From NCBI GenBank assembly GCA_964482715.1, contig CAYZYX010000001.1, positions 5,398-69,397 on the forward strand: a DNA stretch of 64,000 nt, read 5' to 3'. The notes under the pieces are model-generated. The model saw only the letters and a program-made list of their open reading frames with translations. It had not been told where the DNA came from and did not search any database. The DNA is from an uncultured Clostridia bacterium. GTDB lineage: Bacteria > Aerophobota > Aerophobia > Aerophobales > B3-G15. The position numbers and the translations under genes are program-made. How positions within the stretch are numbered: position 1 is the stretch's first letter; each line of letters opens with the position of its first letter. Shown piece after piece: positions 3,381 to 64,000 of this stretch.

Positions 3381-3398
3381 GCAAAAAGTCAATTGTAC

Positions 3399-4955
3399 AT
3401 GGTGTTTTACAAAAATATGAATGCGAGAGATATATGTAGATGGATATCCGGGTGGTGCTTGATCTTACCCTGGCTTTTTGTTTTGTCAACCGTCATCTTT
3501 GCCTCTAATGAAGAGGGTAATTTCAAGATAGTAGTATTTGAGTCACCTGCCTGTCCCCATTGCCAGGAGATGATAGGAGAGTATTTTCCAGAGCTTCTTG
3601 AAAAATACCGTTTCTTGCAGATAGTTTATTATGACATTGATCAGCCAAAAAACTACGAGCTATTTCTGGAGATGGAAGCTCAAATTACTACAGAAGAGGA
3701 AAGACCTGATGTTTTTGATTTGCCGGTAGTTATATTTGGTGAAGAGATAATGTACGGTCCGGAGCAGATTAAGGCTCGTTTGGAAAATTTAATTTTACAG
3801 GCTTCCTCTAAAACATATACCGATAAGGAGGAAGAAAAAGTTCCGGATAAAACCCGGGTTACTTCTGAAAAGACTGTACATCTTGCCTATTTTTTTGAAC
3901 CAGGTTGTCGCGAGTGTAACATTTTTGAATATGGATTATCGTACCTCAAGAATAAATACCCTACTCTTGAGGTGGAATATTTCAACCTTGGCGAAAGGAA
4001 AAATCAGGTTCTCGAGGAAGCAATAGGGGAGCTTTACGGTGTTCCACCGGAAAAAAGGCACCTTTCTCCTGCGGTTTTTATCGGGGAATACTATTTTGTG
4101 AGAGAGATAAGTGTGCGAAAATTGGAGGAGATAATAAAAGGTTATCTTTCCACTGGTAGCCCAAAAACCTGGATTAACATTCAGGAAAAGCTGGAAAAAA
4201 TAGAAAAAGGAGAAAAAGCACAGACATATCTGGAAAAACTAAAAATTCCAGCCGTAGCTACCGCTGGTTTAATTGACGGGGTTAATCCCTGCGCCTTTTC
4301 TGTGGTTATTTTTTTAATTACCTATCTTAGTTATCTTAACAAGGAAAGAAAAGAGATTCTGCAGGTAGGTGTATCCTTTGTTGTAGCTGTATTCACCAGT
4401 TATTTTTTAATCGGTTTAGGGCTTTTCGAATTCCTGCACAGAGCAACTTTTTTCCCTTTTCTCAGAAAAGGTATATTTATAGCCGGGGTTTCTTTTACCA
4501 GCTTACTGGGAGTTTTAAGCCTTTTTGACTATTTTAAGATAAGAAAAGGCAATCCGGAAGACATGAGTTTAAAAATACCTTCCCGCTGGAGGAAGATGGT
4601 TAACACGTTTATCGGTCGAAAAATGAGAGGGAAAGAGTTTTTAATACCCATAGCACTGGGGATTGGATTTCTTGTCTCGTCAGTTGAATTCGTCTGTACA
4701 GGTCAGATTTACCTGCCCACCCTTGTTTTTTTGTCCGGGATAAGCTCCTTTAGAAAAGCAATACTTTTCCCTCTTTTTGTATATAACTTATTTTTTATAA
4801 TCCCGCTTCTCGGGATTTTTTTAGCTGTGTATCTTGGAATATCATCGGGACTTTTATCAAGGGTCATTTACCAAAATTTTCCTCGTGCCAAAATTTTAAC
4901 TTCTGCTCTCTTTTTTGCACTGGCAACCATCCTTTTTTATCTTATGGGATGGTAG
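3399..4955 (+). CDS. DsbD/CcdA-family thiol:disulfide transporter fused to two N-terminal thioredoxin-like CxxC domains
   Basis: CPHC (SPACPHCQEM) and CREC (EPGCRECNIF) motifs in the N-terminal half. C-terminal polytopic membrane domain has GVNPCAFSVV and a second Cys in FVCTGQIY, as in CcdA/DsbD. Start codon uncertain (TTG 3393, ATG 3399 or 3417). Confidence 0.7.
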   Translation: MVFYKNMNARDICRWISGWCLILPWLFVLSTVIFASNEEGNFKIVVFESPACPHCQEMIGEYFPELLEKYRFLQIVYYDIDQPKNYELFLEMEAQITTEEERPDVFDLPVVIFGEEIMYGPEQIKARLENLILQASSKTYTDKEEEKVPDKTRVTSEKTVHLAYFFEPGCRECNIFEYGLSYLKNKYPTLEVEYFNLGERKNQVLEEAIGELYGVPPEKRHLSPAVFIGEYYFVREISVRKLEEIIKGYLSTGSPKTWINIQEKLEKIEKGEKAQTYLEKLKIPAVATAGLIDGVNPCAFSVVIFLITYLSYLNKERKEILQVGVSFVVAVFTSYFLIGLGLFEFLHRATFFPFLRKGIFIAGVSFTSLLGVLSLFDYFKIRKGNPEDMSLKIPSRWRKMVNTFIGRKMRGKEFLIPIALGIGFLVSSVEFVCTGQIYLPTLVFLSGISSFRKAILFPLFVYNLFFIIPLLGIFLAVYLGISSGLLSRVIYQNFPRAKILTSALFFALATILFYLMGW

Positions 4956-4986
4956 TGAAACTATCCACTTTTAAGGGAGGTTTAGA

Positions 4987-5508
4987 ATGCGGGGGAACAT
5001 AAAAATTCTGAAGAAAATAGGTGCGCTTTTTCTGTTGACTTTTTTTGTCTCAGGGATAGGGTTTGCTGAAAAGGGAACCAGTCAATCTTCTGCAGGAGAT
5101 GGTTTAAAAATGGCACAACCTGCTGATCTTGTTGTTACTGGAATAGATGTTCCGGATAACATACAGGCAGGTCAGGAAGTTCCTCTTAAAGTTAGATTAG
5201 CCAATTTTGGAGGAGATGATTTTACCCGGAGTATTAGTTTTGCTACTGCTGCTATTGAATTTGATCAAACTTACATGTTATTTAAAATTCGCATGCCCAG
5301 AGCCTCTGAAGAAGTTACCCAAGAGATAAGGTTTATTTTTCCGGTTTCTCAGTGGTACAATCTAACAGTTGTTGCTGATCCTGATAATGCAATAAGAGAA
5401 ACCAACGAAAACAACAATCGCTATTCCAGAAAAATCTGGGTTTCTGGAAAAAGCCTGGCTCCCAAACCAATTAAGAAGAAAAGGTCCAGATGTGGCTGTG
5501 GAAAATAA
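4987..5508 (+). CDS. Secreted CARDB-domain protein
   Basis: Signal peptide, then DLVVTGIDVP...AGQEV and NENNNRYS motifs characteristic of CARDB adhesion-related domains. Confidence 0.55.
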   Translation: MRGNIKILKKIGALFLLTFFVSGIGFAEKGTSQSSAGDGLKMAQPADLVVTGIDVPDNIQAGQEVPLKVRLANFGGDDFTRSISFATAAIEFDQTYMLFKIRMPRASEEVTQEIRFIFPVSQWYNLTVVADPDNAIRETNENNNRYSRKIWVSGKSLAPKPIKKKRSRCGCGK

Positions 5509-8435: not shown

Positions 8436-8558
8436 AAAATATCTTCTTGAGGTCTGGACAGTTTCTTACGATGGGGTTCGGGGGCTTTATTTATCTCGAA
8501 AAAAATGTTCCAGCTCGGCTAACTTTTGCAAGTTGAAGAAATGATCAGCTTGAAAGAT

Positions 8559-8798
8559 TTAGCTGGTGCCGGCAAGTTGACCACAGACACTCTTCACATC
8601 TTTTCCCTTACTTTCTCTAATAGTCACAGGATGAGGAAGGGAAAGACACCAGCCATAAAATCTCTCAATTTCTTTTCTCTCTGAAGGTGAAAATGAAACA
8701 TTCTGGTGGGGGTTTAAAGGTATAAGGTTTATTTTCACCTTAAGCCCTCTGCAAAATTTTCTCAAAGCAAAAAAATCCTCCTTCCGGGTATTAAACAT
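8559..8798 (-). pseudogene. rlmN: Remnant of 23S rRNA/tRNA methyltransferase RlmN (radical SAM): C-terminal ~79 aa only
   Basis: Translation ...VKINLIPLNPHQNVSFSPSERKEIERF...PVTIRESKGKDVKSVCGQLAG matches the conserved RlmN/Cfr C-terminus (VNLIPFNP...R...I.RF......V..R...G.DI.AACGQLAG). No radical-SAM CxxxCxxC N-terminal region is encoded upstream in any frame. Confidence 0.55.
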
Positions 8799-40074: not shown

Positions 40075-41310
40075 GTGCACAAGTGGATGACAATGTTTCT
40101 TTGTGGGGGACTTATTTGGATACATGCAAGCTCTCTTCCAGGATTTACTTCTATCAATGTATCTACTCTTCCTGAGCCCTATTCTACTGTTCTCACCATT
40201 TACGAGAGGGGAGATTTTACTTTAGTTCAAGAACGCTACTTGATTAATTTAAAAGAAGGGGTAAATACCTTGCAGTTTGATTGGTCTGGGACCCTGATTG
40301 ATCTCTCCTCAGTTGAACTAAAATTCCTCCTGCATCCTGACAGAGTTAATCTTGAGGAAATAATTTTACCTGTCCGTGGAGAAAAACTTTTACTCTGGAA
40401 AATCCAGGCAGAAGAACCTGTAAGAGAATTAATTGAAGTTTCCTATTTTACCCGGGGAATTTCCTGGCAGGCAGATTATGATCTCGCGATTAATGAGCAA
40501 AGAAGCCGGGTTTTAAAATTTCAGGGCTGGGTCAGGATAAAAAATCAAAGCGGTAGGGACTTCTTAAAATCCAGGATTATGCTTATCACCGGTGAACCGC
40601 ATTTACTGGGACGGAAAAAGGAAAAACCCCTGAAAGCGGCACTTAGAATGAGAACAAAGATAGAAGCCGAGGCTTTGCCCCCTCCTATCAGCAAAGAGGC
40701 TGTGTCTGAGTATTACCTCTATCAAATTGAAGGTGAAAATGATCTTAGAACCGGTCAGGAGTCCACCTTTTCACTATTTAGAGTAGAGAATATCCTGCTT
40801 CTGGTGACATATCGATTCAATAGCTCGCAAAACGGTTTATTTCCTGTAATCTTGTGTAAATTTAAAAATACGCAAAAGTTCTCTTTACCACCGGGTGTTG
40901 TGCGAGGATGGTTATGTATCAATGGGAAAAAAGAAGAATATCTGGGTGAAGCCAGTATAGATTTTATACCTCCTGATGAAGATATCAAATTGAGTTTGGG
41001 AAAAGAAAGCAGATTAAAGCTGACCAGAAAAAAGACCTCCTTTACCCGTGAGGACCCACAGTTTAGCAAGAGAAACGATTTAGTTCAGTATTTCGAAAGA
41101 GAAGAGTATACTCTAAAAATTACAAATTTCTCGAATCAGGAAGTCAAAATTGAAATTAGAGAACAGATACCTGGAGAATGGGAATTTATCACCTCAACGG
41201 TTCCTTTGCATCGGAGGGAAGCAAATGCTCTTGAGTTCAGGTTAACTCTACCTGAAAGAGGCGAGGGAGAAGTTATTTACCAGATAAGAAAAATAGTAAG
41301 GCTGAGGTAA
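40075..41310 (+). CDS. Secreted DUF4139/DUF4140-like (MuiA-like) family protein
   Basis: Signal peptide. Internal ISWQADYDL segment and C-terminal ...IPGEWEFI...LEFRLTLPERGEGEVIYQI resemble the DUF4139 C-terminal pattern. Paralogous to the next ORF. Confidence 0.5.
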   Translation: MHKWMTMFLCGGLIWIHASSLPGFTSINVSTLPEPYSTVLTIYERGDFTLVQERYLINLKEGVNTLQFDWSGTLIDLSSVELKFLLHPDRVNLEEIILPVRGEKLLLWKIQAEEPVRELIEVSYFTRGISWQADYDLAINEQRSRVLKFQGWVRIKNQSGRDFLKSRIMLITGEPHLLGRKKEKPLKAALRMRTKIEAEALPPPISKEAVSEYYLYQIEGENDLRTGQESTFSLFRVENILLLVTYRFNSSQNGLFPVILCKFKNTQKFSLPPGVVRGWLCINGKKEEYLGEASIDFIPPDEDIKLSLGKESRLKLTRKKTSFTREDPQFSKRNDLVQYFEREEYTLKITNFSNQEVKIEIREQIPGEWEFITSTVPLHRREANALEFRLTLPERGEGEVIYQIRKIVRLR

Positions 41311-41314
41311 TAAA

Positions 41315-42439
41315 GTGAAGCCATGTTTTAAATTTTCTGGATTAACCTTCTGGTTTATTCTTTTGCTGAATTTTGTTTTTCCTAATTTTGGTTACGGTGG
41401 GGTTAGCCTTTTAACTTCGCCCGAACAGATAAATATAAAGTTACTGGAAAATCAGAAAGCTCTAATAACCGAAACAAGATATTTAGATCTAAAAGAAGGA
41501 ATAAATGAGGTCTATTTGAAGTACCCTGGAATGAGAGTTATTCCTGATTGTTTTTCTATAAATTTTGTTGAAACTCCGGAAAAAATAAGATTTATCCGCA
41601 GTTCAGTTTCTCTTAAAGACCCTTTCAGTTGTAGCTGGATATTCTATTCTCAGGTAGAGGGAAAGAGACTCACAGAGATTTCTTACCTGGTGGAAGGTTT
41701 GGTTAGAAGCTATTCTTACATCGGTGAAATAGATAAAGAGGGAGATTTAATTTTATTAAGAGGCTCTCTTTTACTCGATAACCAAACAGGAGCTAATTTT
41801 CGAGGAGTTACCCTGATTGGAGAAAAACAGGGCAGGTGGAACATTGATCTTGATTCGGGACAAAAAAAGAAGTTACCACTCTTTGACGGTCTTTCTTTTT
41901 CTTTGCAAAAGGCCTACCTTGTAGATAGGGAAAATTACGGTAACCGGGTTATTTTTAAATACAGATTTATTAATGAAAGTCAGAATATCCTGTCACCCGG
42001 GAAAATCAGGGTTTATCAGAGAGAACCAGAGAGATTGACTTTTTTGGGTGAAGATGAAATCGGGATCGTAAACCCCGGAGAAAGAATAGAAATAGTAGTT
42101 GGAACTGTCCGGGATATAAGGGTGGAGAGGAAAATGGTTGAATTTTCACGCATTAATTTGAGAAGGGACGATACCGGACATCTGGAGGTTTACGATACCC
42201 GGGAAAAATATGAAATATATTTAAAAAACAGAAAAAAAGAAAAGGTAAGGATAGTAGTTCGGGAATACATTCCTGATAGCTGGGAAATGATAAATTCTGA
42301 ACCAGCCGGATACGTAAAAGAAGACGCTCATCATATAAGATTTGAAATCGATCTTGAACCAGGGGAAGAGAAGAAAATTAGCTATCAGATCTACCGTAGA
42401 AATCTACTCCCTGGAGAACCGGTGAAGCCCCTTTTGTAA
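41315..42439 (+). CDS. Secreted DUF4139/DUF4140-like family protein (tandem paralog)
   Basis: Signal peptide; shared segments with 40075..41310 (YLDLKEGINEVYL, EISYLVEG, IPDSWEMI...IRFEIDLEPGEEKKISYQI). Confidence 0.5.
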   Translation: MKPCFKFSGLTFWFILLLNFVFPNFGYGGVSLLTSPEQINIKLLENQKALITETRYLDLKEGINEVYLKYPGMRVIPDCFSINFVETPEKIRFIRSSVSLKDPFSCSWIFYSQVEGKRLTEISYLVEGLVRSYSYIGEIDKEGDLILLRGSLLLDNQTGANFRGVTLIGEKQGRWNIDLDSGQKKKLPLFDGLSFSLQKAYLVDRENYGNRVIFKYRFINESQNILSPGKIRVYQREPERLTFLGEDEIGIVNPGERIEIVVGTVRDIRVERKMVEFSRINLRRDDTGHLEVYDTREKYEIYLKNRKKEKVRIVVREYIPDSWEMINSEPAGYVKEDAHHIRFEIDLEPGEEKKISYQIYRRNLLPGEPVKPLL

Positions 42440-57505: not shown

Positions 57506-59212
57506 ATGGCAAAAGTAACAAGGATGAGTCTCAGAGAAGTTTTGCTTCGAGAGAGATTTATCACTGAGGAAGATTTAAAGAAGGCGGAGCGGTATCAAAA
57601 GCAAAATGGCGTAAGTCTGGCTGATGCCCTCATAAAGATGGGTGTTATCAATGAAGAGCAGCTTGTTATTGGACTTGCCAAACAACTTGGGATCCCACAT
57701 GTAAAACTCAGCAATTACAAACTCGATCCTGAAGTTATGGAAACTATCCCTGAGGAAATTATCCGTAAAGAAAAAATAATTCCTCTGGCAAAATCGGGAA
57801 ATATTTTAACCATCGCTACAGCCGACCCTTTAAATGTTTTGCTTATTGACGCTCTAAGAGCCAGAACAGGTTACAATATTCAGACAATAGTTGCTACCCC
57901 CACTGAGATTGAGAAAGTGATCGCCGATTATTTTTCTACCAAGGCTGAAAAAAGTATCAGCAGTCTTATTGAACAATCGGGTGATAATCTGACAGTTCTG
58001 GAAGGGGAAGAAACAGTAAATCTTGACGCACTCCTGCAGGAAGCAGAGCAAGCGCCAATTATAAAAATGGTCAATATGCTTCTTTCTCGAGGCATAAGGG
58101 AGAGGGCAAGTGATATTCATTTAGAGCCTTTTGAAGATAAAGTACGAGTCCGATATAGAATTGATGGTATTTTATATCCTGCAATGAACCTGCCCAAGAG
58201 AGTCCAAAATGCCATAGTTTCCCGTATAAAGATTCTTTCCGAGATGGACATTGCCGAACGTCGTCTTCCTCAGGATGGAAGATTCAGAGTGAGGGCTTAC
58301 AATCGAGATATTGATTTTAGAGTTTCCACAATTCCTACACGATTTGGAGAAAAAGTTGTTTTAAGACTTCTGGATAAAGCCCAACTTATGGGTTTAACCA
58401 TAGATAAACTGGGATTAGAAGAAGACGTTTTGAAAAAGTATCAGAGGGCTATAAAGCAGCCCTACGGGATGATCATTCTTACCGGTCCCACAAGCTGTGG
58501 TAAATCCACATCATTACATGCAGCTATAAGGGCCCTTAATACACCTGATAAAAATATATTAACTATTGAAGATCCAGTAGAATATGAACAGGAAGGGATA
58601 AATCAGGTTCAGGTGAATGAGGAAATCGGCTTGACCTTCTCTCGTGCTTTAAGAGCCTTCCTCCGCCAGGACCCGGACATAATAATGCTGGGTGAGATGA
58701 GGGATCTGGAAACCGCTGATATTGGAGTTAAGGCAGCCCTTACCGGTCATCTGGTTCTTACCACTTTGCACACCAATGATGCTCCCGGTGCAATAACGAG
58801 GCTTTTAAACATGGGAGTTGAGCCTTTCCTTGTTGCCGGCTCTCTCATTTTTGTTGGAGCCCAGCGTCTCATGCGCAGGATTTGCAAGGAATGTGCTGAG
58901 GCCTATACACCCCCTCCAGAGCTTTTAGAGCAACTTGAGGTGGACAAAGACCCTAAGTCTCTCACCTTCTACCGGGCAGTAGGTTGTGAGGCCTGTAACA
59001 ATACAGGTTATCGAGGGAGAATGGCTGTAATGGAGGCTTTAGAGGTGGATGAGGTAATAAGGGACTTGATAATAAAGAGAGCCTCCGATGTGGAGATAAG
59101 AAGAGTGGCTATAGAAAGAGGAATGGTCCCCTTAAGGAAGAATGCCCTGGCCAAGATTTTAAAAGGAGAGAGCACAGTTGAAGAATTGGGAAGAATAACA
59201 GGGACCATTTAA
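57506..59212 (+). CDS. pilB: Type IV pilus assembly ATPase PilB (GspE family)
   Basis: N-terminal T2SSE_N domain, Walker A GPTSCGKST, Asp/His boxes, tetra-Cys zinc motif CKEC...CEAC. Confidence 0.9.
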   Translation: MAKVTRMSLREVLLRERFITEEDLKKAERYQKQNGVSLADALIKMGVINEEQLVIGLAKQLGIPHVKLSNYKLDPEVMETIPEEIIRKEKIIPLAKSGNILTIATADPLNVLLIDALRARTGYNIQTIVATPTEIEKVIADYFSTKAEKSISSLIEQSGDNLTVLEGEETVNLDALLQEAEQAPIIKMVNMLLSRGIRERASDIHLEPFEDKVRVRYRIDGILYPAMNLPKRVQNAIVSRIKILSEMDIAERRLPQDGRFRVRAYNRDIDFRVSTIPTRFGEKVVLRLLDKAQLMGLTIDKLGLEEDVLKKYQRAIKQPYGMIILTGPTSCGKSTSLHAAIRALNTPDKNILTIEDPVEYEQEGINQVQVNEEIGLTFSRALRAFLRQDPDIIMLGEMRDLETADIGVKAALTGHLVLTTLHTNDAPGAITRLLNMGVEPFLVAGSLIFVGAQRLMRRICKECAEAYTPPPELLEQLEVDKDPKSLTFYRAVGCEACNNTGYRGRMAVMEALEVDEVIRDLIIKRASDVEIRRVAIERGMVPLRKNALAKILKGESTVEELGRITGTI

Positions 59213-59228
59213 AAGAGGGTGTTGGTAA

Positions 59229-60458
59229 ATGCCCACTTACAGTTACATAGCTCTGGACCCATCGGGTAAAAAGATCAAAGGGGAAGTGGAAGCGGAGGAT
59301 GAAAGAGATGTTGTTTCTCAACTTCGTCCTCGCCGGTTTACGATTATTTCCGTAAAAAGGAAATCAAAAGTTAGTGAGCTGGGTGGAAAGGAGCTTTCGC
59401 AGCTTTCCATTTTTTCTCCTCGAATAAAGGGGAGAGATATTATTATTGCTTTCCGACAAATGGCCACTCTTATCAATGCTGGACTTCCCATTGTTCAGTG
59501 TCTTGACATACTTATCCATCAGACGCCAAATCCTACGTTAAAAAAGGTTTTCATTCAAATTAAAGCTGATGTGGAAGCAGGAGTTTCTCTATCGGAAGCT
59601 CTGGCTAAAACCAAAAAGTTTCCTCCTCTCACCTATAACCTTATAAAAGCTGGTGAGACAGGGGGGGTGCTTGATGATCTCTTGCTCCGGCTGGCAAGTT
59701 ATCTTGAAGAGGCAGAAAGTATCAAGGAGAGAGTAAAGTCAGCCTTGAGGTATCCTCTTTTTGTTTTGTTTATGGCTGGAGGGCTGACCCTGGCATTACT
59801 TTTTTATGTTTTACCCAGAATGGAAGAGCTATTCCGGGAGGCATTTAAAGCGGATCTTCCTGCTTTTACTGCATTCATTCTTAATTTTTCCCGTTTATTG
59901 AGAGAAAAATTTTACATTGTTCCTGTAATTCTTGGCATTGTCCTGCTTGTTTACTTTATAATGAAAAAAACAGAAAAAGGTGCCTATCTGATAGATAGCT
60001 TAAAATTAAAAATACCTGTTCTGGGAAAACTTTTTCACCGGATTGCCCTATCAAGATTTACCCGCACCCTGGCTACTTTGACTGATAGTGGTGTTCCTAT
60101 ACTTGATGCTCTGGAGCTTACCGGGAAGGCGTCCGGAAATAAGGTCATTGAAAAGGCCACTGAAGAGGCGAGACAGGCATTGAGAGAAGGGGAAACCATT
60201 GCGGCACCCTTAAGGAAATATCCCATTTTTCCACCCCTTACCATAAGCATGATATCTGTTGGAGAAAGGACAGGGGCGCTTGATGATATGCTCAACAAGA
60301 TAGCTGATCTTTATGAGGATGAAGTCAAGAGGATGGTTGACTCTCTGACCAGTTTACTGGAACCTCTACTTATTGCATTCATGGGAGCTTCGGTGGGGAT
60401 AGTAGTAGTGGCAATGTACCTTCCCTATTTTACCATGTTTCAGCATATAGGTGGATAG
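59229..60458 (+). CDS. pilC: Type IV pilus inner-membrane platform protein PilC (GspF family)
   Basis: Two GspF repeats, three TM segments, conserved ...LLEPLLI... C-terminus. Confidence 0.85.
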   Translation: MPTYSYIALDPSGKKIKGEVEAEDERDVVSQLRPRRFTIISVKRKSKVSELGGKELSQLSIFSPRIKGRDIIIAFRQMATLINAGLPIVQCLDILIHQTPNPTLKKVFIQIKADVEAGVSLSEALAKTKKFPPLTYNLIKAGETGGVLDDLLLRLASYLEEAESIKERVKSALRYPLFVLFMAGGLTLALLFYVLPRMEELFREAFKADLPAFTAFILNFSRLLREKFYIVPVILGIVLLVYFIMKKTEKGAYLIDSLKLKIPVLGKLFHRIALSRFTRTLATLTDSGVPILDALELTGKASGNKVIEKATEEARQALREGETIAAPLRKYPIFPPLTISMISVGERTGALDDMLNKIADLYEDEVKRMVDSLTSLLEPLLIAFMGASVGIVVVAMYLPYFTMFQHIGG

Positions 60459-60468
60459 GAATCTATAG

Positions 60469-62817
60469 GTGGAAAAGAGAACCATAGAGTCCGGGTATTC
60501 TCCGGTCCTGTCTTTTATCCTTCGTTTTGGTCTTTTTGAGCTTCTCTTTCTTACCCCCCTTATCTTTTATGGTTGGGCAACCACTTTTTCCATGACCAAA
60601 GAAACCTTTGCAGAAATTTCATGTCTGGTACTTTTCTGCGGGATTATGATTAAGATAACAAAAAGGGAAATTGATTTGTCACTTGGCCTTTTTAGTTTGC
60701 CGGTAGCTATATTTGGCCTCTGGCTTTTGGCTTCTGTCAACTGGAGCCAGTCTTTATATCTTTCTCTTCAGAGACTGGGAGTGTGGGGGTCTTTTTTTCT
60801 TGTTTATTTTCTTTCCCGATGGGTGGCTGACGATGAAAAATGGGTTTTTTTACTTTTAACGGGAGCCCTTCTATCGGGCTTTCTGGCAGCGGCATACAGT
60901 ATCTGTCAGTTTTACGGGGTTGAACTTCCAATCTGGAGGCAAATTACTGGAAGGATGCGCATTTTTTCTACCTTTGGAAATCCAAATTATCTTGCCAGCT
61001 ATCTGGCAGGTGCAATTCCACTTTTAATATATTTTTTTCTTTATCACAAAAGATGGAGGATTTTTTACCTTGTGGCAATTGGCACTTTATATACAGGTCT
61101 TCTCATTACCTACACTCGAGGAGCCTGGGTAGCACTATTTCTCTCGGTGATACTGACCATTTTTTTGATTTTAATTTTTCAGGGGAAAAGTTTCTTTTCT
61201 CTTCATAAAATACCTCTTATTTTACTTTTAATCCTTGTTTTTTCTTTAACTTTTGTGTTTTCTATTCCCAATCCTCTAAATTTAAAGAAAAAAAGTGTTA
61301 TAGAGAGGGGAGCTTCGGTGCTTGAATTCACCTCATCGGCAACACAGCGTCTTTTGATCTGGCAGGTGGCAGTTCAGCTTATTAAAGAAAGACCTCTTTT
61401 TGGTTGGGGGATAGGCACATTTGGTCTTCATTATCCTGAGGCCCAGGGAGAATTTCTTTCCAGAGCTGGAAATAAAAATTATATTCCCCAGGCTAACAGG
61501 TCAATTCATGCTCATAATGATTATCTGGAGATCTGGGTGGAGACCGGGATAGTTGGAATTTTGCTCCTTTTGTGGGTGATAGGAAATTTTTATCGAAAAA
61601 TTTTTCTTTGTTTAAAGAAAACCACATCAGCCTCATTCTCAGCTTTTTTGATATTTATCACTGCCAGTATTAGCTGTTTTTTAATCCATGCTACAGTCAG
61701 CTTTCCCTTTCACATTGTGCAAAATGGGATGTTTTTCTGGCTTCTCATGGCCATATCGGGAAAAAAGATTGAAGAAAACTTGGGTTTGGATCAACACGAT
61801 CTTTTGAGATGGTGCAAGGGAAAGGAAGGCAAACCGGTTAGTTATCGGTTTAAAAAAGGATGGTTTTTACTTGGACTGGTTATAGTTTTTTCTTTTTATC
61901 TCGGTTTGTGGCGAATAAGAATATTTACATCTGATCTTCATGTAAAGCAGGCCGAGCTTTTAATGGATGCCGGGTTTTACCTGCCAGCTAAAGAGCAGCT
62001 TCTGGAGGCGGTAAAAATAAATCCCTATAATGCTCAAGCTTATGCTTATCTGACCAGAGCTTATATTTATCTTGGTAATTACCGTGAATTAATTGATATC
62101 TTTCCCGGGGCTTTAAAAGGCTGGAACACCCCCAATATTTATAATAATAAAGCCTTTGCTCTACTGAAGCTGGGGAAAATTAAGGAGGCAAGGGAAATTT
62201 TAGAGAGAGGTATATATCTTTATCCCAACTTTGCTCCTGGTTACATCAACCTGGGTTATATTTCTTTGCTTGAGGCTGAGGAGAAATTGAAAAAAAAGAA
62301 TTTTCCTGGAGCATTGGAAAATCTGGATAGGTCTTTACTGTCTTATGCTCAGGCAAAGATCTGGCAAAAAAATTTTGCTATTCCAGAGAGGCTATCATAC
62401 GACTTTTCAATGTGGAAAAGAGAAAAAGGATATATAGAGAAAAACGTCCAGATAAAGGAAATTTCACCTACCTTCCCTTTTTATGTTAAAGATAAAAGCT
62501 TTGTTTTTTTGCTTCCCCCGGTTGCCTGGCCGGAGGAATCTTTTCTGGTTAATGTGCTTGTTTTTGATAAAAAATCTGAAAGAAATCACATCCTCGAGCT
62601 AAAATTAGAGATTTCAAAAAAAGAAGGGGAGATTAAGTATCAAAGAAAAATTAACCTTCCGCAATTTTCTGAGAACCCTGTTATTGTTAGATTTATTTTT
62701 GAAAAGGGGCTTCCTGAGGGAAGCTACTATGCCCGGGTTAAATTACTTGAAAATGGAAAGGAGGTTGAGGGTAAGCAGTTAAATTTCAGCATAGCTCAAT
62801 TCCCGCTCCCAGAGTGA
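60469..62817 (+). CDS. O-antigen ligase family (Wzy_C) membrane protein with C-terminal TPR domain; candidate pilin O-oligosaccharyltransferase (PglL/TfpO-like)
   Basis: About 12 TM segments. Wzy_C signature motifs YTRGAWVAL and HAHNDYLEIWVETG (the H-N-x-Y-L-E periplasmic loop). C-terminal ~300 aa with TPR-like repeats. Sits between pilC and the pilin gene. Confidence 0.75.
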   Translation: MEKRTIESGYSPVLSFILRFGLFELLFLTPLIFYGWATTFSMTKETFAEISCLVLFCGIMIKITKREIDLSLGLFSLPVAIFGLWLLASVNWSQSLYLSLQRLGVWGSFFLVYFLSRWVADDEKWVFLLLTGALLSGFLAAAYSICQFYGVELPIWRQITGRMRIFSTFGNPNYLASYLAGAIPLLIYFFLYHKRWRIFYLVAIGTLYTGLLITYTRGAWVALFLSVILTIFLILIFQGKSFFSLHKIPLILLLILVFSLTFVFSIPNPLNLKKKSVIERGASVLEFTSSATQRLLIWQVAVQLIKERPLFGWGIGTFGLHYPEAQGEFLSRAGNKNYIPQANRSIHAHNDYLEIWVETGIVGILLLLWVIGNFYRKIFLCLKKTTSASFSAFLIFITASISCFLIHATVSFPFHIVQNGMFFWLLMAISGKKIEENLGLDQHDLLRWCKGKEGKPVSYRFKKGWFLLGLVIVFSFYLGLWRIRIFTSDLHVKQAELLMDAGFYLPAKEQLLEAVKINPYNAQAYAYLTRAYIYLGNYRELIDIFPGALKGWNTPNIYNNKAFALLKLGKIKEAREILERGIYLYPNFAPGYINLGYISLLEAEEKLKKKNFPGALENLDRSLLSYAQAKIWQKNFAIPERLSYDFSMWKREKGYIEKNVQIKEISPTFPFYVKDKSFVFLLPPVAWPEESFLVNVLVFDKKSERNHILELKLEISKKEGEIKYQRKINLPQFSENPVIVRFIFEKGLPEGSYYARVKLLENGKEVEGKQLNFSIAQFPLPE

Positions 62818-62835
62818 GTTTCCCAGAATAGGAGG

Positions 62836-62863
62836 TTGACAGTATTTTTTTATTTTTTACAAT
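62836..62863 (+). promoter_or_regulatory. Sigma70-like promoter TTGACA-16-TACAAT driving the riboswitch-pilin transcript
   Basis: TTGACA 62836-62841, 16 nt AT-rich spacer, TACAAT 62858-62863. Confidence 0.5.
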
Positions 62864-62884
62864 ATAATGGTTTTACAATCCGGT

Positions 62885-62980
62885 AAAGTGGAGCCGAAAG
62901 GGCACACTATCCGAAAGGATAGGTCGCAAAGGCACAGGCCCCTCAGGGGTAGCTGGCCTGCCGAAGCTCTTTGGCATAGA
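62885..62980 (+). promoter_or_regulatory. Putative c-di-GMP-I (GEMM) riboswitch aptamer in the pilin 5' leader
   Basis: AGGGCACACUAUCCGAAAGGAUAGGUCGCAAAGGCACAGGCC aligns with the Vibrio Vc2 aptamer GGGCAAACCAUUCGAAAGAGUGGGACGCAAAGCCUCCGGCC as recalled from memory. That gives a perfect 6-bp P2 helix capped by a GAAA tetraloop, the conserved ACGCAAAG junction, and a long P3 hairpin (GGCA-GGCC...GGCC-TGCC). Confidence 0.6.
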
Positions 62981-62981
62981 A

Positions 62982-63012
62982 GACCCATTCTTTCGGATGG
63001 GTCTTTTTATTT
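62982..63012 (+). terminator. Intrinsic terminator forming the riboswitch expression platform
   Basis: GACCCAT-TCTTTCGG-ATGGGTC hairpin followed by TTTTTATTT. Confidence 0.65.
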
Positions 63013-63081
63013 GGATATATAAAACTTAAAGACAGAAAAAATATCGGCCGATAAAAATAAAAGAAGAGGAGGTGAAAAAAT

Positions 63082-63651
63082 ATGGAGAGGATGATGAGAA
63101 AAGTTTGGTCCAGGAAGAAGGGATTTACCCTGATCGAACTTTTGATCGTGGTCGCCATCATAGGCATATTGGCGGGTATTGCCATTCCCAACTTCCTGGG
63201 CGCAAGGACGAAGGCAAGGGTATCAAGGGCATTTTCGGACATGGAAGCAATAGCTACAGCAGAGGAGATGTACATGATGGATGAAGATCATTATGCTGAC
63301 CAGATTACCACTCTGATTAATGATGACTATCTTAAGAACATTCCCAATTGTCCATTTGGTGATGGTGATTATTCTTTATTTACAAGTCCAGACACAAGTC
63401 CCACCATGTTTGTGATTTTGTGTGATGGACCTCATTCACCAACAGGAGGAGCGGCATCTAATGCAAGTGTTGAATGGGATCCCCGAATACGTGGTGCAAT
63501 TGGTGGATGGAATGGAGCAACCGATGAGGCATACTACGGGATCAGTTTAACTGGTACTACTCAAGCTGACGGTTCAGAAACCGACTGGTTCACCCCTACT
63601 GAGACTGAGGGTGCAGCAGACGATGGTATTTTAGGTTATGGAGGCGGATAA
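63082..63651 (+). CDS. pilA: Type IVa pilin (prepilin with N-terminal cleavage/methylation domain)
   Basis: Leader MERMMRKVWSRKKG then FTLIELLIVVAIIGILAGIAIPNF (Gly-1, Phe+1, Glu+5). GAGGAGG RBS. C-terminal third rich in Ser/Thr/Gly/Asp. Confidence 0.85.
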   Translation: MERMMRKVWSRKKGFTLIELLIVVAIIGILAGIAIPNFLGARTKARVSRAFSDMEAIATAEEMYMMDEDHYADQITTLINDDYLKNIPNCPFGDGDYSLFTSPDTSPTMFVILCDGPHSPTGGAASNASVEWDPRIRGAIGGWNGATDEAYYGISLTGTTQADGSETDWFTPTETEGAADDGILGYGGG

Positions 63652-63711
63652 ATCTTTTATGACCACATGGGCATATTTCCGTGTGTCCACATCTCTCCTG
63701 CTTCACTTAAA

Positions 63712-63749
63712 GGTAGGGAGGTTTTTCTCCCTACCTTTTTATTTTTCAA
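63712..63749 (+). terminator. Intrinsic terminator downstream of the pilin gene
   Basis: GGTAGGGAG-GTTTTT-CTCCCTACC hairpin followed by TTTTTATTTTT. Confidence 0.7.
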
Positions 63750-63880
63750 TAAGCCTCCTTTCCACAGCCTCACAAAAATTCTGCTTGACAAGATAGGTGG
63801 ATTAAGATAATTTTATAATTAAGAAAGGATATAAAGAATCTTCATTTTAGATTAAAAATGAGGAAAAGGAGGTGAAAAGA

Positions 63881-64000
63881 ATGATAAAAAAGATAGGACT
63901 CTTACTCTTAGCAGTAATTTTGGGTGTTGCCCTTTTTTCTGGACTGGCAATACCCCAGCAGAAGGAAAAGCCGGTAGAGATATACTTTTTCTGTGGAGGT
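63881..64000 (+). CDS. Hypothetical secreted protein (3' end cut by window edge)
   Basis: AAAGGAGGTG RBS, ATG at 63881, signal-peptide-like MIKKIGLLLLAVILGVALFSGLA; open to the window end. Confidence 0.35.
   Translation, partial: MIKKIGLLLLAVILGVALFSGLAIPQQKEKPVEIYFFCGG

Follow-up and report, generated by a model that had tools for sequence, protein, structure and literature searches.

A 64,000-nucleotide stretch of contig CAYZYX010000001.1 (assembly GCA_964482715.1; hereafter the window), from an uncultured bacterium placed by GTDB in the Aerophobota, carries a type IV filament gene cluster in which a gene for a polytopic membrane protein of 782 amino acids (aa) lies between pilC and the pilin gene. 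We propose that this protein is an O-oligosaccharyltransferase directed at the pilin, a reading to which we assign a probability of roughly 0.55 on the strength of its fold, the conservation of its catalytic residues and the repeated neighbourhood of pilin genes in related loci. The leader of the pilin gene also contains a riboswitch of the cyclic di-GMP (c-di-GMP) type, which would place the supply of the putative acceptor under separate control.

A Wzy_C/WaaL-fold gene in a minimal type IV filament cluster

Six-frame open reading frames (ORFs) were catalogued for 52-64 kb of the window. The gene order proposed in an initial annotation of this DNA, namely pilB and pilC followed by the 782-aa protein and then the pilin, was borne out, with every ORF where it had been placed and strong hidden Markov model (HMM) support. 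The features of the cluster are as follows:

57506 to 59212, forward strand: pilB, extension ATPase of 568 aa with an N-terminal MshEN domain (Pfam T2SSE, E = 5.5e-133; MshEN, E = 6.2e-22)
59229 to 60458, forward strand: pilC, platform protein of 409 aa (Pfam T2SSF, E = 1.3e-66, two repeats)
60469 to 62817, forward strand: gene for the 782-aa Wzy_C/WaaL-fold protein, GTG start; putative pilin O-oligosaccharyltransferase
63082 to 63651, forward strand: prepilin of 189 aa (N_methyl, E = 1.6e-10), likely the major subunit
63709 to 63748, forward strand: terminator 3' of the pilin gene, 13-bp stem with six GC pairs, then a T-run

The spacers between these genes measured 16 nt (pilB/pilC), 10 nt (pilC/782-aa gene) and 264 nt (782-aa gene/pilin gene). 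PilC matched the NCBIfam PilC/GspF models at E = 1e-107 to 1e-114, and PilB scored 642 bits against TIGR02538, slightly below the cutoff of 676. The prepilin carries the N-terminal methylation sequence KKGFTLIELL; its AlphaFold2 (AF2) model had a predicted local distance difference test score (pLDDT) of 83, and the best fold matches were Thermus thermophilus PilA4, gonococcal pilin and GspG/EpsG. At the level of sequence, a chance origin of the four-gene cluster and its motifs is ruled out, and the cluster is, by its predicted products, a minimal type IV filament module (pilB, pilC and pilin) with a Wzy_C/WaaL-fold enzyme inserted.

The type IV pilus parts present in the window were PilB, PilC and the prepilin. 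PilM-Q and PilT were absent from its 64 kb, and no PilD was seen in the window 3' of the pilin gene (63652-64000); PilD follows the pilin in relatives only. Given the lack of PilT and PilM-Q in the window and the GspG-like pilin, the system may be a pseudopilus resembling that of type II secretion systems rather than a retractile pilus.

Membrane core and catalytic residues of the 782-aa protein

Analysis of the 782-aa protein revealed a match to Pfam Wzy_C (PF04932) over residues 207-368 (E = 1.4e-24; 87.1 bits, cutoff 31.7). An AF2 model of the protein was made from 40 homologs (pLDDT 87; predicted template-modelling score 0.84). A look-up of the exact protein sequence gave no entry; a public copy on an ENA metagenome contig, P0001, which differs at two residues (L225F and S241R), served as a stand-in for the look-up. 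From the N-terminus, the model comprised 12 membrane helices (residues 12-438), a basic disordered linker (439-460), a 13th helix, a tetratricopeptide repeat (TPR) solenoid and a beta-sandwich. The corresponding regions of the gene are listed below:

61087 to 61572, forward strand: Wzy_C catalytic region (residues 207-368, including R217, R294 and H349-N350)
61849 to 61917, forward strand: predicted 13th transmembrane helix (approximately residues 461-483), past the basic low-confidence linker
61978 to 62427, forward strand: TPR domain (residues 504-653; Pfam TPR_17, TPR_8, TPR_2 and TPR_1, AF2 helical repeats)
62446 to 62793, forward strand: C-terminal beta-sandwich (residues 660-775), eight predicted strands

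When the membrane core was searched as a profile against the PDB, the sole match was the WaaL structure 7TPG (E = 1.5e-11); a Foldseek search of the PDB with the full model returned TPR proteins only and no match for the membrane core. In the profile alignment R217, R294 and H349 paired with R191, R265 and H313 of CmWaaL. Both O-antigen-ligase signature motifs pointed out in the initial annotation, YTRGAW (residues 215-220) and HNDYLE (residues 349-354), were confirmed, and they aligned with R191 and H313 of 7TPG, respectively. The equivalent residues of Escherichia coli WaaL (R215, R288 and H338) are functionally important, and PglL keeps all three as R224, R298 and H349 (PMC3643930).

Conservation was then counted over 40 family members sharing 22-53% identity. 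H349 and N350 were present in all 40 sequences, R294 in 39 and R217 in 31. The PxxGxGxG motif (residues 309-316) and residues S411, F412 and P413 were invariant, with F414 found in 39/40 and H415 in 38/40 members. One subclade (P0016, P0017, P0019-P0022, P0025, P0026 and P0035; loci L041 and L014) reads TNI-GG instead of TxTRGAW in alignment A1 and so has no counterpart of R217, the first conserved Arg of WaaL and PglL; it retains R294 and H349, and L041 retains the order pilB, pilC, Wzy_C gene, pilin and pilD. The near-invariance of H349/N350, R294, PxxGxGxG and SFPFH across this family argues for retained catalysis.

Predicted topology and the C-terminal ectodomain

Hydropathy in the region of the 13th helix peaked at 1.87 on the Kyte-Doolittle scale (residues 465-483), within an AF2 helix spanning residues 461-500, and the linker at residues 439-464 contains seven Lys/Arg residues. 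When a 13-helix topology with a cytoplasmic N-terminus and an external C-terminus was assumed, the short loops carried 13 Lys and Arg residues on the cytoplasmic side versus 3 on the external side. Both termini of WaaL are reportedly cytoplasmic, and the N-in orientation of our model agrees with this topology. Because of the charge bias and the agreement with WaaL, the HNDYLE loop is predicted to be periplasmic, in line with the location anticipated by the initial annotation. We infer from the model that both C-terminal domains, the TPR solenoid and the beta-sandwich, are carried to the outside of the cytoplasm by the 13th helix.

The TPR tail was recovered both as Pfam matches (residues 512-600) and as a solenoid in the AF2 model, and in Foldseek and HMM searches the region also resembled consensus TPR proteins and the TPR domain of OGT. 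The beta-sandwich had mean pLDDT values, taken over blocks of 10 residues, that fell mostly between 72 and 93; no Pfam family matched residues 660-775.

Pilin genes accompany the enzyme gene in three gene orders

Relatives of the 782-aa protein at 34-54% identity came mostly from metagenome-assembled genomes (MAGs) labelled Candidatus Aerophobetes, and remoter ones from Atribacterota, which points to an uncultivated Aerophobetes-like bacterium as the source of the window. The order pilB, pilC and Wzy_C gene recurred in 12 related loci (11 plus L041), with the encoded homolog 36-54% identical to the window protein; where the contigs continue (L002, L003 and L041), a prepilin and then PilD follow. 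A different order was found in two Atribacterota MAGs (L018 and L020) and one metagenome (L039), in which the homolog is approximately 675 aa long and 28-31% identical and the prepilin gene lies immediately upstream; downstream of the homolog are PilD in L018 and L039 and minor pilins in L039. In L040 the gene for the homolog (26% identical) and a prepilin gene are divergently oriented within a full PilMNOPQ/PilSR/PilBC-type cluster, where unannotated ORFs separate PilM, PilO and a secretin and where PilS, PilR, PilC and PilB are also encoded; a distinct TPR protein is encoded beside the secretin genes. Adjacency to a pilin gene was thus observed in the window, L002, L003, L041, L018, L020, L039 and L040, for homologs 26-54% identical. 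These comparative data are the strongest link to the pilin, and they support its gene reasonably well as the constant partner of the enzyme gene across three gene orders. Gene adjacency to pilin is the argument by which the PglL, TfpO and TfpM enzymes were identified (PMC3643930, PMC9829042), and 21 of 31 PglL homologs lie beside pilin genes (PMC3643930).

A further layout was present in L004 (7109-19332) and L005, where a c-di-GMP-I aptamer is followed by a 198-aa Sec-secreted Thr/Ser-rich protein, a 520-aa protein with weak Pfam matches to Ig-like domains, a 931-aa Wzy_C-TPR homolog and then giant proteins with CLIPPER or CarboxypepD_reg matches. L012 and L016 resemble this layout in the parts examined there, the aptamer and the Wzy_C-TPR gene. 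In this Atribacterota-type layout, enzymes of the Wzy_C-TPR family may serve a fibre that is not built of pilin.

In eight loci (L001, L006, L008, L009, L010, L011, L015 and L017) the contigs end within or just past the Wzy_C-TPR gene, or within the pilin gene. Most pilin homologs were found on contigs of approximately 1 kb, and pilin identity was 44-58% compared with 66-83% for PilB. The contig breaks and the divergence of the pilin suggest strain-level pilin hypervariability that disrupts assemblies.

Relationship to characterised glycosyl-transferring enzymes

Pilin-adjacent Wzy_C oligosaccharyltransferases are a textbook arrangement. The initial annotation described the 782-aa protein as Wzy_C/PglL-like; the Wzy_C/WaaL fold stood, as shown by the PF04932 score and the 7TPG match, but membership of the PglL family was not supported by that family's own markers. 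A Pfam scan of the protein gave no match to PglL_A (PF15864) at E<=0.1, and Wzy_C_2 (PF11846) scored 17.6 bits against a cutoff of 28.5 over residues 491-587, which overlap the TPR region; some homologs have weak precomputed PF11846 matches. The closest curated families were IctB (TIGR00947; 83.3 bits, cutoff 366.4, with an alignment near full length at residues 70-432) and then RfaL (PRK15487; 37.9 bits, cutoff 277), both far under their cutoffs. Assignment as a WaaL O-antigen ligase by family markers and gene location was not supported, given the RfaL score, the neighbouring pilB, pilC and pilin genes, and a window containing no lipopolysaccharide (LPS) genes.

The fusion of an O-oligosaccharyltransferase to TPR repeats had been considered unusual, a view that could not be maintained. 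PglL and WsfB have a described C-terminal TPR motif (PMC2943079), TfpW has one by analogy (bioRxiv 10.1101/2020.04.19.049825), and Wzy_C and TPR were combined in most of the best 60 database matches. Like PglL and PglS, the 782-aa protein has a Wzy_C core, the Arg/Arg/His set, a gene of the kind frequently found beside a pilin gene and an enlarged C-terminal region predicted to be periplasmic (PMC3643930, PMC2943079, PMC9829042); in PglS the larger C-terminal periplasmic domain is proposed to recognise internal sequons (PMC9829042). However, PglL and PglS are proteobacterial enzymes of 520-620 aa, whereas the protein described here has 782 aa, an extra beta-sandwich and an Aerophobetes-like host, and is encoded after pilC and before the pilin gene. 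TfpO (PilO) and TfpM are also Wzy_C enzymes encoded beside their own pilin gene, and are dedicated to that pilin (PMC9829042). They differ in length (approximately 425 aa for TfpM, with TfpO similar-sized), in having no large C-terminal domain, and in gene position immediately downstream of pilA, and they modify a C-terminal Ser/Thr. This class was ruled out for the 782-aa enzyme by its size, by the position of its gene upstream of the pilin gene and by a pilin that ends in GYGGG.

TfpW, which glycosylates the group IV pilin of Pseudomonas aeruginosa, is likewise polytopic and pilA-adjacent, with a large periplasmic C-terminal TPR region (bioRxiv 10.1101/2020.04.19.049825). In contrast to the protein described here, it is an ArnT/Emb-like GT-C arabinosyltransferase that carries a DDX motif and uses polyprenyl-phosphate-arabinose as its donor, and not a Wzy_C enzyme. 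The Wzy_C/WaaL-like core rules out a TfpW identity; the shared part is the periplasmic TPR tail only, and the resemblance is one of convergent architecture. WaaL (7TPG/7TPJ), the only solved homolog, has the same 12-helix core and matched R191/R265/H313, but lacks the 13th helix as well as both C-terminal domains (TPR and beta-sandwich); it acts on lipid A-core and is encoded in LPS core clusters. The WsfB and WsaB enzymes of Paenibacillus and Geobacillus combine Wzy_C with TPR (WsfB) or with a separate TPR protein (WsaA with WsaB), and the protein glycosylated is an abundant surface-array protein (PMC2943079). These systems differ in being encoded in surface-layer (S-layer) glycan clusters with sugar-biosynthesis genes and in having an S-layer protein substrate and no pilin.

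In the literature found, the characterised classes of O-linking oligosaccharyltransferase belong to Proteobacteria (PglL, PglS, TfpO and TfpM) or to Firmicutes S-layer systems, and no description of an enzyme of the 782-aa type was found in the literature searched. By its sequence markers the 782-aa enzyme is outside all four described classes and belongs to an uncharacterised subfamily. What is new is the beta-sandwich on the TPR tail, the position between pilC and the pilin gene and the occurrence in uncultivated phyla; the arrangement itself is well known.

Candidate acceptor sites in the pilin

The initial annotation also proposed that the pilin ends in a Ser/Thr/Gly-rich tail offering acceptor sites. 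All of the strings it quoted were present, but they lie in internal loops, and the real end of the protein is a conserved DGILGYGGG strand. The proposal that these stretches serve as acceptors fared poorly, as they were variable and poorly conserved and the enrichment was mild: Ser and Thr together made up 0.15 of the residues of the mature pilin (0.20 for the C-terminal half alone), compared with 0.10 in the long ORFs of the window, and orthologous pilins had 0.11 to 0.16. In the pilin model the Ser/Thr-rich stretches formed one hairpin turn and low-confidence loops. The turn, TSPDTSPT, joins strands 98-102 and 109-114 and is the best candidate acceptor in the model; the pattern TSP-x-T-[ST]-PTM is kept in the nearest pilins only. 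Because the pilin ends in the conserved DGILGYGGG strand, a C-terminal Ser/Thr acceptor of the TfpO/TfpM style was excluded (several orthologs end in GYGSG). We also rejected as acceptor the motif TS-x-GD near the C-terminus, which is common to most of the family and reads AD-DG in the window pilin.

Proposed mechanism and alternative explanations

In the mechanism that we propose, PilB, PilC and the 782-aa enzyme would be translated from one tightly packed operon. On the outer leaflet of the cytoplasmic membrane, the enzyme would accept a pre-assembled glycan linked to undecaprenyl pyrophosphate (und-PP), with R217 and R294 holding the pyrophosphate and H349 at the active site. The ectodomain formed by the TPR solenoid and the beta-sandwich would probably dock the globular head of the folded, membrane-anchored pilin and present an internal pilin loop to the active site. 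Transfer of the glycan to a hydroxyl group in a side chain of this exposed loop would come next, and only afterwards would PilB and PilC draw the subunit into the filament. The amount of pilin would be set separately, through the promoter of its own gene and a riboswitch-terminator.

Several observations weigh against pilin-directed glycosylation. Sequence cannot separate WaaL ligases from O-oligosaccharyltransferases, and PglL_A was missing from the Pfam matches. One subclade in which synteny is kept is without an R217 equivalent. L013 and L014 have the order pilB, pilC and Wzy_C gene with no pilin immediately downstream. On the acceptor side, the Ser/Thr enrichment of the pilin was only mild, and one of its stretches, TGTTQADGSETD, is an insertion in the window pilin that is missing from orthologs. 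Finally, genes for und-PP-glycan assembly, a flippase or an initiating transferase were absent from the 64-kb window, in which a single GT4 fragment at 327-1097 was the sole glycan-related gene found.

Part of this evidence would fit a general O-oligosaccharyltransferase of the PglL type with many periplasmic or surface substrates, of which the pilin is the most abundant or simply the neighbouring one. The PglL of Neisseria acts as a general enzyme and has a TPR motif at its C-terminus (PMC3643930, PMC2943079), the neighbours of the 931-aa homolog of L004 and L005 are a Sec-secreted protein rich in Thr/Ser and large adhesin-like proteins, not a pilin, and L013 and L014 have no adjacent pilin. 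We nevertheless consider such an enzyme unlikely, given that the absence of a PglL_A match counts here as well and that the recurrence of a neighbouring pilin gene in three arrangements, among homologs 26-54% identical, suggests that selection has paired the enzyme with the fibre subunit. Quite improbable, too, is a ligase of the WaaL type, or a different Wzy_C enzyme (polymerase-like or IctB-like), that acts on a lipid or polysaccharide such as LPS core, an exopolysaccharide or a surface glycolipid, with co-expression alongside the pilus reflecting surface co-regulation only. The sole solved relative of the 782-aa protein is indeed WaaL, the curated families that it matches best are IctB (83 bits over nearly the full length) and RfaL, and identical catalytic residues serve both functions (PMC3643930). 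Those scores, however, are far under their cutoffs (83 vs 366 bits; 38 vs 277 bits), the gene lies outside any LPS or polysaccharide locus, and a ligase of this kind would leave unexplained both the TPR ectodomain of a protein-binding type and the repeated adjacency to pilin.

A non-catalytic role in pilus biogenesis, in which the TPR domain acts like PilF/PilW/Tgl and the Wzy_C core is a membrane anchor, appears very improbable. The TPR region had weak matches to the PilW/PilF (E = 2.2e-6) and Tgl (E = 1e-3) models and also matched PilF structures, the gene is packed together with pilB and pilC, and one subclade is without an R217 equivalent. Against this, the (near-)invariance of H349/N350, R294, PxxGxGxG and SFPFH over 40 sequences at 22-53% identity speaks for catalysis having been retained, the TPR similarity is generic, and L040 has its own TPR protein by the secretin genes.

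If the 782-aa protein is indeed a pilin-directed O-oligosaccharyltransferase, the known phylogenetic range of pilin glycosylation would be extended to uncultivated anaerobes. The protein would also offer a structurally distinct enzyme for glycoengineering with a built-in substrate-docking domain, and a natural setting in which to test how acceptor specificity depends on periplasmic domains at the C-terminus. A broader and distinctly more tentative proposal is that it is the first member of a fifth class of O-oligosaccharyltransferases acting on fibre subunits, with homologs in loci named Aerophobetes or Atribacterota and in other uncultivated lineages. Such a class would be characterised by a WaaL-like core, a 13th transmembrane helix and a TPR domain outside the cytoplasm (joined here by a beta-sandwich) that selects the folded subunit as acceptor. 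It would travel with subunit genes gated by a c-di-GMP riboswitch, these being type IV pilins or, in Atribacterota-type loci, a Sec-secreted Thr/Ser-rich subunit.

A predicted c-di-GMP-type riboswitch upstream of the pilin gene

Three elements that the initial annotation had overlooked, a promoter-like site, an aptamer and a terminator, lie in the 264 bp that separate the 782-aa gene from the pilin gene:

62836 to 62863, forward strand: sigma-70-like promoter, TTGACA-16-TACAAT, 11/12 consensus positions and best in the region; a consensus match only
62892 to 62966, forward strand: c-di-GMP-I-type (GEMM) aptamer (Rfam RF03167, 62.3 bits, gathering score 59, E = 2.5e-12)
62978 to 63013, forward strand: intrinsic terminator, 13-bp hairpin and U-tract by RNAfold; predicted riboswitch expression platform

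With its own promoter and a c-di-GMP-I-type riboswitch/terminator, the pilin gene would therefore have a subunit supply responsive to cyclic dinucleotide. Homologous aptamers were found ahead of the fibre-subunit gene in L002, L003, L018, L020 and L004, at the equivalent position at the contig end in L011, and as c-di-GMP-I matches upstream of the Wzy_C-TPR gene in L012 and L016. These sister-locus aptamers scored 47-87 bits on RF01051 (gathering score 35). The layout of aptamer then terminator also occurred in L002, L003 and L011, and tandem c-di-GMP-I aptamers preceded the pilin in L020 (192-278 and 453-538) and L018 (8216-8311, with an aptamer-like element at approximately 8460-8560). Alignment of nine aptamers revealed covariation in the P1b stem and the sequence CGCAAAG in 9/9 where the RF03167 consensus is CGCGAAG; near-identical sisters were called as canonical RF01051. 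The definition and ligand of the GGC variant (RF03167) were not found in the literature searched. Because CGCAAAG is present in all nine aptamers and the sisters are assigned to RF01051, the ligand is probably c-di-GMP.

The aptamer and the terminator do not overlap. RNA folding of a nascent transcript ending before the 3' arm of the terminator showed the 5' arm pairing back into the aptamer, in the window via GAAAGGAUAGGUC, and this antiterminator pairing was 4-7 kcal/mol stabler than the aptamer alone in 4/4 loci tested. Since pairing of the 5' arm with the aptamer outcompetes the aptamer alone in folding, we tentatively suggest that the riboswitch is an OFF switch; against this, the calculation is one of thermodynamic folding only and the alternative pairings vary between loci. 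An ON-switch model was set aside, as no overlap between the P1 stem and the terminator was found to back it.

The pilA1 element of Clostridioides difficile is a class II ON switch. It resembles the present element in placing a c-di-GMP aptamer with terminator-based control in the 5' leader of the major pilin mRNA (PMC6200980, PMC6366702). The element described here differs in having a class I (GEMM) aptamer whose best model is the GGC variant and in being, tentatively, an OFF switch.

PilB, whose MshEN domain is predicted to bind c-di-GMP, carries two tandem 24-residue motifs of the MshEN type at residues 8-31 and 37-60 (window 57527-57685), and scored 38.8 bits against the NCBIfam c-di-GMP motif NF053729, barely reaching the cutoff of 38. 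c-di-GMP may thus control the pilus at both the ATPase, through the MshEN domain of PilB, and the pilin mRNA. The conserved pairing of c-di-GMP riboswitch and fibre subunit, together with the MshEN-type PilB, predicts two-level cyclic-dinucleotide control of pili in little-known phyla.

Other genes in the window

The remaining genes of the window encode housekeeping and sugar-catabolism functions. Two regions in which no link to the pilus module was seen are 40075-42439, where two adjacent DUF4139 proteins of 411 and 374 aa are encoded, and 3393-5508, where a 520-aa protein with a weak thioredoxin-like match lies beside a 173-aa CARDB-domain protein. At the 3' end (63652-64000), past the pilin terminator, an ORF beginning at 63882 encodes a signal-peptide-like N-terminus and runs out of the window.

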